64,000 nt of DNA, taken from contig JBPCJZ010000181.1 in the NCBI GenBank assembly GCA_051004775.1, forward strand, positions 2,391-66,390. The letters are read 5' to 3'. This stretch comes from Gemmatimonadota bacterium. Its GTDB lineage: Bacteria > Gemmatimonadota > Gemmatimonadetes > Palauibacterales > Palauibacteraceae. A model generated the notes under the pieces. The model did no database searches, had not been told where the DNA came from, and saw only the letters and a program-made list of their open reading frames with translations. Positions 26,499 to 29,400 of this stretch are shown here, in pieces. Position numbers and translations under genes: made by a program. Position 1 is the stretch's first letter. Each line of letters starts with the position of its first letter.

Positions 26499-29400
26499 TC
26501 AGGCCGGCACGGGAGACGGCTCACCGCCGCCCGTGCCCTCGAGCGGCGATTCGCCCCGCGGCTTCCGGACGGGTCCCGGCACGGGAGTGACGGGCTTCGG
26601 CGGATCGCTCGGCGGCGGCTCGAACGGCGGCAGCGGTTGGCCCGCGGCCATCAGCTTGATCTCATCGGCGTCGAGCGTCTCGCGCTCGAGCAGCGCCTCC
26701 GCGATCTCTTCCATGAGGATGCGGTGCTCCTTGAGGACCTCCTCGGCGGTCGCGTACGCGTCGTCGAGGAACCGCTTGATCTCGCGGTCGACGGTCTGGG
26801 CCGTGCTGTCGCTGACTTCGCGGCGGTGTCCCAGTTCCCTGCCGAGGAAGACTTCCTGCTCCGCCTCGCCGACGGCGATCGGGCCGAGCGCATCGGACAT
26901 GCCGAACTGCGTGACCATGCGGCGCGCGATGTTCGTCGCGCGCTCGATGTCGTTGCCCGCGCCGGTCGTGATCTTGCCACGGCCGAACACCATCTCCTCG
27001 GCCACCCTGCCGCCGAACAGCATCGTGAGCTGGCCTTCGAGCCAGTCCTTGGTGTAGTTGTGGCGATCCTCCTCGGGCAGCGACGCCGTGATCCCGAGGG
27101 CGCGGCCGCGCGGCACGATCGTCACCTTGTGCAGCGGGTCGAGGCCGGGGACGCGCAGGGCGATCACCGCGTGGCCCGCCTCGTGGAAGGCCGTGACGCG
27201 GCGCTCCTCGTCGCTGATCACCATGCTCTTGCGCTCCGCGCCCAGCATGACCTTGTCCTTCGCCTCCTCGAAATCGCTCATGTAGACGCGATCCTTGTCC
27301 TTCCGCGCCGCGAGCAGCGCCGCCTCGTTCACGACGTTGGCGAGGTCGGCCCCGGATAGCCCGGGCGTTCCCTTGGCCAGAATCCTCAGGTCGACGTCCT
27401 CCGACAGCGGGATCTCCTTCGTGTGCACCTTGAGGATGCCTTCACGGCCGTTGATGTCCGGGCTGCCGACGACGATCTGCCGATCGAAGCGCCCGGGGCG
27501 CAGGAGAGCGGGATCGAGCACGTCGGGCCGGTTGGTGGCTGCCAGCAGGATCACGCCCTCGTTCGACTCGAAGCCGTCCATCTCGACCAGGAGCTGGTTC
27601 AGCGTCTGCTCGCGCTCGTCGTGCCCGCCGCCGAGACCCGCGCCCCGGTGCCGACCGACCGCGTCGATCTCGTCGATGAAGATGATGCAGGGCGCGTGCG
27701 TCTTCCCCTGCTCGAACAAATCACGAACGCGGCTGTTGTGCAGCAGCACCGGCTTCTCGCCGCCGAAGAACGCCTCGTTTCCGCAACCGCACAGGTCGTA
27801 GACGAACCCTTCGTACGCCACACGCTCCACTCGTCGCACCACCGGCCGCTTGCCGGACTGCGGGTGTCGCGGGCGCTCGTCCTCGGAGAGGAACGGGTTG
27901 GCGCTATTGCCGACGATGAGCGTCCAGCTCTCGGTCTCCGGGAGCGGTCTCGACTTGATTACCCGGCCCGCGGCATGGGTCTGCCGGCGGATGCCGGTCG
28001 GGATGCCGTGCATCCCGCACAGCCACGCCAGCTCGCTGATCAGGCGCCGGCTCACAGATGTCGCGCGCAGCTTGCCCGCCGCCGAGGTCCAGCCGTCGCC
28101 GTCGGTGTAGCCCTTCAGATACGCGAGGAACAACTCGCGCGGCGCGTCCCACAGCAGAGCCGGTATGTGCTTGGCGTGACTTCCGTTGCCGCAGTGCCGC
28201 GTAAAGAAACGTCCGAGCGGAGCGGAATGGACGACCAGCCGTGTCGAGTTGTCGGCCGTCTCCACGCGCTTGGGTGACAGACCGAACAGCTTGTCGATCA
28301 GGCGAGTGGCGTCGGCGATCAGCTCGGTCTCGTGCGTTCCGAAGCACAGCTCGAGGTCGCCGTTCTCACGCCCCTCGGCGGTGTACAGCCCCATCAACCG
28401 AAGCAGATCCTCGGAGACGGGCACCCCGTCCGGTACGTCCGTCGTCCCGTAGCGATCCGACAGGCCGCGCGGCAGGTGCTTGCCCGACTGCCAGTTCCCG
28501 ACCGTGGCCTGCGACACCCCCAGCATCTCGCCGAGCTCGGCCTGTGAATGGCGGTCGCTGGAACCGATGGCGAATGCGTAGGCCGCGATGAGGTTCTGGT
28601 CCGGCTCGTTGATGTCCAGCGCCTGCGGAACGCTGCTACCGAAGGAATGGGCGCGGACGTGATGCGGCGTTCCCTCCGTGGCGTCGTACGCGCCACGGAC
28701 CTGGAACGGCAGGTTGACCAGCACGTCGCCCGGCACAATCTCCCGTGCCTGCTTCGCGCGAATCCCGCCGTGACCCCGAACGAACACGCTGTGGTCGCCG
28801 GTGGTGCGGATCTTCCCGCCGAGGTACTCGATCTCGTAGATTTCCTCGACCCGGTGACGGTACACGCCCTTCACCGCCTGCCAGCCACTGCCGCCGAACG
28901 TTTCGAGGTCACCCCGGAAGCCCGATTCGCCGCTCTCGTAGCCGAGCGCCTCGAGTCCAAAGGACGGGATCACGCGATCCGCTTCGCCGTCGGCGTAATA
29001 CGGATCGACCGCCTCACTGATCGGGACGAGCCGGGTACCGGTTTCGTCGCGGACCAGGACCGGCGTGTCGCCGGTCACGGACGCACCGACACCTACGAAC
29101 ATCTCGACGAAGTCCGAGCCGCTCATCGAGAAGAACGGGCGCTCGGCCTCGCCGGCCACGGCGCGCGCGAGCAGCGTCTTCCCGGTTCCCGGCGGTCCGA
29201 TCAGCAGGGCACCCTTCGGTAGCCGGCCGCCGAGGCGCCGGAACTTGGCCGGATCCTTCAGGAAATCGATGATCTCGACGAGGTCTTCCTTCGCCTCGTC
29301 CGCGCCCGCCACGTCGGCGAACGTGACCTTCGGGGTGTCACCGCTCAGGAGCTTCGCCTTCGACTTGCCGAAGCTGAACGCCCGGGAGCCGCCGGCCTGC

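Follow-up and report, generated by a model that had tools for sequence, protein, structure and literature searches.

A probable class 1 intein with a LAGLIDADG endonuclease in the ATPase core of the protease FtsH

We analyzed a 64,000-nucleotide (nt) stretch of DNA from a Gemmatimonadota bacterium (contig JBPCJZ010000181.1; hereafter the window, to which all coordinates refer) and found that its gene for the protease FtsH carries an in-frame insert of 449 amino acids (aa) in the conserved ATPase core of the protein. With a probability of about 0.92, we consider the insert to be a canonical class 1 intein with a LAGLIDADG homing endonuclease, that is, a selfish mobile element residing in ftsH. 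The observations that carry this reading are the anatomy and fold of the insert, the conservation of its residues, the purifying selection acting on it, an exact empty site in a related genome and a patchy distribution among bacteria.

The insert and its host gene

The ftsH precursor is encoded on the minus strand (26499..29837), a detail absent from the preliminary description mentioned next. According to the list of open reading frames (ORFs) and their translations, the frame runs unbroken from an ATG at 29837 to a TGA at 26499-26501 and specifies 1112 aa plus the stop, made up of an N-extein, the intein and a C-extein; a preliminary description of this DNA, made from the letters alone, had put the length at about 1102 aa, a figure that the translation corrects. 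The start codon lies 19 nt downstream of the stop codon of hpt, and an upstream extension of the ORF to 30143 was rejected as ftsH coding sequence because it overlaps hpt. On the precursor, the FtsH model TIGR01241 scored 827.8 bits (cut-off 600) in two stretches that abut at the insert, the second of them beginning at precursor residue 701, which corresponds to model position 240. The Pfam families FtsH_ext, AAA, AAA_lid_3 and Peptidase_M41 each exceeded their gathering scores, and the HEAGHA motif of the M41 protease was found in the product.

The insert occupies 27735-29081 (minus strand, 1347 bp) between MFVGVGA and SRVRD and brings in neither a stop codon nor a change of frame; on these points the preliminary description proved exact. 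The N-extein (252 aa; 29082..29837, minus strand) comprises the transmembrane and periplasmic region, the Walker A motif GPPGTGKT and the pore-1 loop, and ends with MFVGVGA. The C-extein (411 aa plus stop; 26499..27734, minus strand) starts with the Ser+1 codon (27732-27734) of SRVRDLF and comprises Walker B, sensor-1, the AAA lid and the M41 zinc protease. The insertion falls between the Walker A and Walker B motifs of the AAA+ module, and removing it in silico restored GASRVRD and yielded an FtsH of 663 aa, approximately 85% identical to FtsH of Gemmatimonadota. This spliced protein aligned with E. coli FtsH (7vhp, 644 aa; E 6e-212) free of gaps at the junction, in agreement with the colinearity and the precise restoration that had been proposed earlier.

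In the alignment with 7vhp, the insertion site separates A230 from S231 of the E. coli chain (644 aa) and lies six residues past the pore-1-loop phenylalanine of the MFVG motif. We take these two residues to be A233 and S234 in the older 647-aa E. coli numbering, in which the pore phenylalanine would be F228. Because the insert follows the pore-loop phenylalanine by only six residues, an unspliced subunit is very unlikely to work: judged from what is established about the pore loop, a domain of 449 aa sitting at the entrance of the translocation pore should inactivate it. The function of FtsH in this lineage should therefore depend on efficient splicing. To our knowledge, no other AAA+ protease is anchored in the membrane, and many bacteria require FtsH for viability; with an intein this close to the loop that translocates substrates, protein quality control in the carriers would hang on a protein-splicing step.

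The residues of the insert form a complete set for a class 1 intein combined with a two-motif LAGLIDADG endonuclease. The intein as a whole (449 aa; 27735..29081, minus strand) is delimited by a splicing region at either end. The N-terminal region (intein residues 1-125; 28707..29081, minus strand) opens with Ser1 of block A (codon 29079-29081) and contains block B, T94-G-D-H97 (the TxxH motif, within 28791-28802). The C-terminal region (residues 414-449; 27735..27842, minus strand) contains D429 in block F and ends with EKPVLLHN in block G, so that the terminal H448-N449 (27735-27740) is directly followed by Ser+1 of the C-extein (LLHN/S, where the slash marks the junction). The LAGLIDADG domain (residues 215-390; 27912..28439, minus strand) holds two such motifs, block C (LMGLYTAEG) and block E (LKGYTDGDG), each with an acidic catalytic residue, E236 (28374-28376) and D329 (28095-28097), as well as K304 of block D (28170-28172). 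Counted over 76 allelic sequences, whose collection is described below, S1, T94, H97, K304, D429, H448 and N449 were invariant, whereas E236 and D329 were each kept in 75; Ser+1 was kept in all 75 parsed loci.

Profile searches placed the insert in the same class. Pfam Intein_splicing (PF14890) scored 37.8 bits (gathering score 35.8; E 2e-9) and LAGLIDADG_3 (PF14528) scored 35.2 bits in two stretches (gathering score 22.5; E 1.5e-8), both well outside what chance would give. The NCBIfam model intein_Nterm (TIGR01445) reached 24.1 bits, just below its cut-off of 24.5, and several intein-containing archaeal NCBIfam models also matched. An AlphaFold2 model of the intein, built on nine members of the family, had a mean predicted local distance difference test score (pLDDT) of 84.3 and a predicted template modeling score (pTM) of 0.82, and its endonuclease domain consists of two alpha-beta-beta-alpha-beta-beta-alpha repeats. 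Compared with the Protein Data Bank (PDB) using Foldseek, the top matches of the model were all endonuclease-bearing inteins, namely TliVMA, PhoVMA (7qsu, 7qss, 7qst), PI-PkoII (2cw7), PI-PfuI (1dq3) and PI-SceI (1vde), with E from 3e-21, obtained for TliVMA as the best match, to 3e-10 and TM-scores (normalized by the query) of 0.44-0.62. Mini-inteins, the LAGLIDADG enzymes I-DmoI, I-Tsp061I and I-SceI, and WhiA followed as lower matches. By sequence, the best match in the PDB was PI-PkoII (phmmer, E 2e-9). The earlier identification of the insert as an intein, made from Ser1, the TxxH of block B, the terminal His-Asn and Ser+1, was borne out by the translation, by both Pfam profiles above their gathering scores and by the predicted structure.

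The linker between the N-terminal splicing region and the endonuclease (28440..28706, minus strand) contains a three-helix module resembling a helix-turn-helix (HTH). In the AlphaFold2 model, helices cover intein residues 162-173, 180-187 and 191-198, and the segment around them (approximately residues 160-200; 28482-28604, minus strand) has an XRE-like HTH signature that is kept in most bacterial members of the family. Pfam HTH_3 matched the module at E 0.0035 and 17.8 bits, below its gathering score of 23, and did so in one of nine family members. Modeled as a separate subdomain, the segment again formed three helices (pLDDT 82.9), and its Foldseek matches were all HTH DNA-binding proteins, with P22 c2, HipB, Mos1 and Lrp among the best, at nonsignificant E of 0.2 or worse. 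The module is possibly an accessory DNA-binding unit.

Three cysteines of the intein are also conserved: C431 (block F, 27759-27812, minus strand) in at least 95% and C433 in at least 80% of the 76 sequences, and C297, in the endonuclease domain, in all nine aligned members. They are retained although both nucleophiles of the intein are serines, and their role could be structural or related to redox or metal ions.

Given these residues, the element would act as follows. The gene would be translated as the 1112-aa precursor, in which the N-terminal ~125 and C-terminal ~36 residues of the intein would fold into a HINT domain. Ser1 would undergo an N-to-O acyl shift aided by T94 and H97 of block B, Ser+1 would attack the resulting ester in a transesterification, and cyclization of Asn449, helped by His448, would free the intein. 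An O-to-N shift would then restore the Ala-Ser peptide bond, giving a wild-type FtsH of 663 aa with the pore-1 loop and the following helix intact. The freed 449-aa endonuclease, possibly with the help of its HTH-like module, would cut intein-free ftsH at the sequence coding for GVGA/SRVRD, and recombinational repair of the cut allele would copy the intein in, an event known as homing. We infer the splicing steps from the residues present and the spread from the distribution.

Distribution, empty alleles and selection

The intein belongs to a widespread family. Using nine aligned inteins as the query, we scanned 185,579 species, each represented by a single genome, and found relatives in 269 of these species-representative genomes, distributed over many phyla. 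We fetched 80 loci from the 269 genomes, and 75 of them had the identical site, MFVGVGA/S...HN/SRVRD (hereafter site a), enclosing an intein of 406-463 aa without a stop; the other five did not fit the junction pattern. The hosts of site-a inteins include Gemmatimonadota, Eisenbacteria, Actinomycetota, Acidobacteriota, Armatimonadota, Planctomycetota, Chloroflexota, Verrucomicrobiota and Patescibacteria, and metagenome-assembled genomes (MAGs) labeled as Proteobacteria and Clostridia. One carrier is a cultured organism, the actinomycetote Glycomyces arizonensis DSM 44726 (L023, NZ_KI519474.1), and two carrier MAG assemblies (L033 and L037; accessions OZ243957.1 and OY970342.1) were deposited as single chromosomes. 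Site-a inteins elsewhere share the insertion point and the domain order of the window's intein and are 47-82% identical to it; its sequence is distinct, the closest copies being those of two further Gemmatimonadota loci (82% for P0072 and 76% for L001).

A protein search with the intein returned 61 matches (best E 1e-162), most of them FtsH fragments from Patescibacteria, Gemmatimonadota, Planctomycetota, Omnitrophota, Firmicutes, Actinomycetota and Eisenbacteria. The longest had at most 784 aa, compared with ~1100 aa for complete precursors. The labels given by the sources were 'AAA family ATPase, partial', 'FtsH, partial', 'LAGLIDADG family homing endonuclease', 'DNA polymerase III delta prime subunit' and 'hypothetical protein', and none of the 61 was annotated by its source as an intein-containing FtsH. 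Intein-bearing ftsH genes are, in other words, commonly miscalled as fragments, as 'AAA family ATPase' or as 'LAGLIDADG homing endonuclease'.

Several members of the family differ from the intact form. Two site-a copies are mini-inteins without an endonuclease (P0045, 212 aa; P0046, 195 aa), one is frameshifted on a 1.15-Mb contig (P0028), and the Gemmatimonadota precursor P0072 (1114 aa), 82% identical to that of the window over its full length including the intein, has the replacement E236G in block C. These are the stages of decay expected of a homing cycle. A partial sequence from the fungus Coemansia spiralis (P0043) encodes a fragment of a YME1-like AAA protease with a 369-aa relative of the intein at site a (FDEIYVGVGA/S...HN/SKVRSLF), 33% identical by BLASTP and 39% in the alignment; this copy has degenerate LAGLIDADG motifs and has lost the HTH-like module. 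Either a genuine intein of a eukaryote or a contaminant could explain it.

The closest relatives of the host gene lack the insert. Among the 120 closest FtsH orthologues, 119 were free of the intein (620-673 aa, mostly 660-669), the sole carrier being P0072. The best matches of the spliced FtsH were Gemmatimonadota proteins with 84-85% identity and lengths of 660-666 aa, which are therefore without an intein. The Gemmatimonadota MAG L162 provides an exact empty site: its intein-free ftsH lies in the gene order tilS-hpt-ftsH-folP-cdaA found in the window, and the blastn colinearity of the two loci stops exactly at 29082 and restarts at approximately 27728. Over 90 nt spanning the empty site (...GTAGGTGTCGGGGCG/AGTAGGGTTCGGGAT..., in short ATGTTCGTAGGTGTCGGGGCG/AGTAGGGTTCGGGATCTGTTC), 78 positions are identical to the flanks in the window. 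The two loci therefore differ by a clean block of 1347 bp, and the intein's presence in the window as against its absence in near orthologues is the polymorphism expected of a homing element.

The wider surroundings are conserved as well. The segment 23400-32900 (minus strand) contains tilS, hpt, ftsH, folP and a cdaA-like diadenylate cyclase gene, then MotA/ExbB-ExbD genes, and is colinear with the Gemmatimonadota MAG GCA_035464655.1 at 66-86% nucleotide identity (78-80% over the main blocks), which assigns the organism of the window to Gemmatimonadota. Elsewhere in the window, a tRNA-Val(TAC) gene (13375-13450, minus strand) and a bacterial small signal recognition particle RNA gene (62832-62927, minus strand) were the sole RNA genes found; they are unrelated to the intein.

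To describe the selection on the insert, we compared it with its counterpart in the closest locus, L001, whose intein is 76% and whose extein core is 90% identical to that of the window. The ratio of nonsynonymous to synonymous substitution rates (dN/dS) was 0.16 for the whole intein, 0.11 for each splicing region and 0.15 for the endonuclease domain, values that are rough because dS is ~1 and near saturation. On these values, the endonuclease domain is under purifying selection. The GC content at third codon positions (GC3) was 0.86 in the insert, 0.89 and 0.92 in the exteins and 0.78-0.86 in neighboring genes; with a GC3 within the range of the host, the insert bears no compositional sign of recent acquisition.

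Across the family, leaving aside FtsH genes with extra inteins, pairwise identities of inteins and of extein cores were correlated (Spearman 0.75) and averaged 54.9% and 60.9%, respectively. In conservation, the intein comes close to the FtsH core, and within lineages its history looks in large part vertical. Certain pairs point to transfer: one Gemmatales intein is 10-13 identity points nearer to inteins of Acidobacteriota, Eisenbacteria and Deltaproteobacteria than the matching exteins are to one another.

Alternative explanations

Several points weigh against an intein that both splices and homes. Splicing, endonuclease activity and homing are all matters that we infer, and the dN/dS values carry the saturation noted above. 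With intein and extein divergence correlated, much of the distribution could be vertical rather than the product of recent homing. IMG/VR held no close copy, only 20-36% identical inteins in contigs of giant viruses and large phages with no FtsH allele among them, and GenBank phages and PLSDB plasmids showed only remote LAGLIDADG similarity, so that no vector was identified. In the flanking third-codon positions, we found no conserved co-conversion tract or recognition-site signal beyond codon constraints. The window contains no second ftsH and no second intein; this check was confined to the window, and the rest of the genome could hold another ftsH. A rival reading is that splicing works but the endonuclease is dead, the intein being immobile, inherited by vertical descent only and persisting because imprecise removal from an essential gene would kill the cell. 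The correlation of 0.75, the lack of viral, phage or plasmid copies, the invisible co-conversion tract, the mini-inteins without endonuclease at the same site and the loss of the acidic residue of block C in P0072, the closest intein-bearing relative, all agree with this view. It fits poorly with the window's own domain, which is intact with E236, D329 and K304, residues kept in 75-76 of 76 sequences across many phyla, and with the dN/dS of 0.15 for that domain. Vertical descent alone does not readily account for an intein missing from 119 of the 120 closest orthologues, and the Gemmatales intein, 10-13 points closer to those of the three groups named above than the corresponding exteins are, also argues for some movement. 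We regard a dead endonuclease as possible but doubtful, and an intact homing intein as the better account of the window.

The near equality of intein and FtsH catalytic core in conservation (54.9% versus 60.9%) may alternatively reflect co-option of the intein as a conditional switch, in which redox state, metal ions or temperature would govern splicing and hence the post-translational control of the protease. Conditional splicing has been proposed for the mycobacterial DnaB and Pyrococcus RadA inteins, so there are published precedents; the site beside the pore loop would leave the unspliced form inactive, and C431, C433 and C297 are conserved despite the serine nucleophiles. These cysteines may nevertheless be purely structural, most close relatives manage without the intein, and such a patchy distribution speaks against a needed regulatory role, while the intact endonuclease and the variants in decay fit a selfish element; we find a switch unlikely. 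Still further from the evidence is an assembly or binning chimera, in which the intein of a different gene or organism became joined to ftsH, or a nonfunctional pseudogene copy of ftsH. The window probably comes from a metagenome-like assembly and its precursor protein has no exact match on record, but the junctions are in frame and codon-exact, the GC3 of the insert (0.86) is host-like next to its exteins (0.89 and 0.92) and neighbors (0.78-0.86), the same architecture occurs in 75 independent assemblies, including the cultured isolate and the single-chromosome assemblies L033 and L037, and P0072 has an 82% identical full precursor. Stops and frameshifts are absent, and the exteins are strongly conserved (85% identical to their orthologues); we see barely any room for either. 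We give equally little credence to a bacterial intein-like (BIL) or other Hint domain that would only cleave or rearrange its host protein. A BIL domain (2lwy) was among the weak Foldseek matches (E 3e-3); BIL domains typically lack a +1 nucleophile, however, and occur in variable, nonessential proteins, whereas here Ser+1 is invariant and the host site is among the most conserved segments of an essential enzyme. True inteins that carry endonucleases make up all of the best matches by fold and by sequence, and excision restores the host sequence exactly. The insert is not a BIL domain on account of its +1 nucleophile, its conserved site in an essential host and its endonuclease, and a class 1 intein remains the reading that we prefer.

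Other FtsH inteins and comparison with known systems

The site shared by the family is one of several in FtsH. Public genomes contain at least four intein sites in the FtsH AAA+ core, GTGK/T in the P-loop, GVGA/S next to the pore loop, AP/C just before Walker B and AA/T at sensor-1, with up to three occupied in one gene. In a Blastocatellia MAG (L013, JAKEHD010000528.1), ftsH carries three inteins, in the P-loop, at site a and just before Walker B; the P-loop intein reads GPPGTGK/C...428 aa...HN/TLLA and the pre-Walker-B intein reads NAP/C...493 aa...HN/CIIFVDEID, and both of these extra inserts exceed the Pfam thresholds for Intein_splicing and LAGLIDADG_3. The P-loop intein occurs together with site a in L022, L033 and L068, and site a together with the pre-Walker-B intein in L039. 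Two Patescibacteria FtsH sequences (P0012 and P0019) have inteins 45-47% identical to that of the window at sensor-1 (xxAA/S...HN/TNRPD; site b), and three more partial ones (P0021, P0027 and P0032) show one of the two junctions of this site. A CDC48-type ATPase (P0053) has the N-terminal junction GKVVVIGA/S. Taken together, these sequences suggest that the intein family has moved between similar GA/S or GA/T contexts within and between AAA proteins. It would be a long shot to conclude from this that FtsH is an unreported hotspot of inteins in which certain lineages keep the site-a family, with its high conservation and its block F cysteines, as a switch that makes FtsH maturation respond to redox state or metals, so that it is not purely selfish.

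The preliminary description had suggested that the allele might be undescribed. We found no description of an FtsH intein in the literature searched, which included the main intein surveys, although InBase or the supplementary tables of a survey may list one, and that part of the suggestion stands; the allele itself is present in at least 269 species-level public genomes, including that of Glycomyces arizonensis DSM 44726. With its sequences abundant in public databases, the FtsH intein is not rare but has gone unreported. It belongs to a thoroughly known kind of element, and our general understanding of inteins is unchanged by it. Novikova et al. (2016; PMC4760082), whose 15 leading bacterial intein hosts do not include FtsH, documented a bias of inteins toward P-loop ATPase domains; the placement in the core of a P-loop ATPase fits this bias, as had been argued from the sequence in terms of a preference for conserved nucleotide-binding sites. 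FtsH adds a major and well-studied host to the clustering of inteins in P-loop ATPase motifs, in many phyla including Patescibacteria and in an apparently fungal YME1-like gene. In practical terms, an intein with Ser1 and Ser+1 that tolerates the native GA/SR junction could serve as a cysteine-free splicing tool.

Among known inteins, those of the archaeal RFC small subunit (P0055 and P0059; ELNA/S...HN/SDERG) are homologous to the intein of the window at 26-30% identity and have in common with it the start motif SV(T/S)(G/K)DTP and the end motif LLHN. Like it, they and the inteins of LonB, MCM and CDC48, described by Novikova et al. (2016; PMC4760082) and Gallot-Lavallee et al. (2023; PMC10710043), lie within conserved ATPase-core motifs that are located between Walker A and Walker B or close to them, whereas the host family and the exact site differ. 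BIL and other Hint domains share the HINT fold with the insert, as the weak match to 2lwy indicates. The class 1 archaeal inteins with solved structures (TliVMA, PhoVMA, PI-PkoII and PI-PfuI) and, more distantly, PI-SceI resemble the window's intein in architecture: in all of them, a split HINT domain encloses a two-motif LAGLIDADG endonuclease, the catalytic set consists of an N-terminal nucleophile, TxxH, a terminal HN and a +1 nucleophile, and the host site lies in the core of an ATPase or a polymerase. The window's intein differs from these solved examples in sequence, with 12-19% identity; in host, which is FtsH and not a V-ATPase or a DNA polymerase; in having serine as both nucleophiles; and in having an HTH-like three-helix module before the endonuclease, where PI-PfuI and PI-SceI have stirrup and DRR domains.

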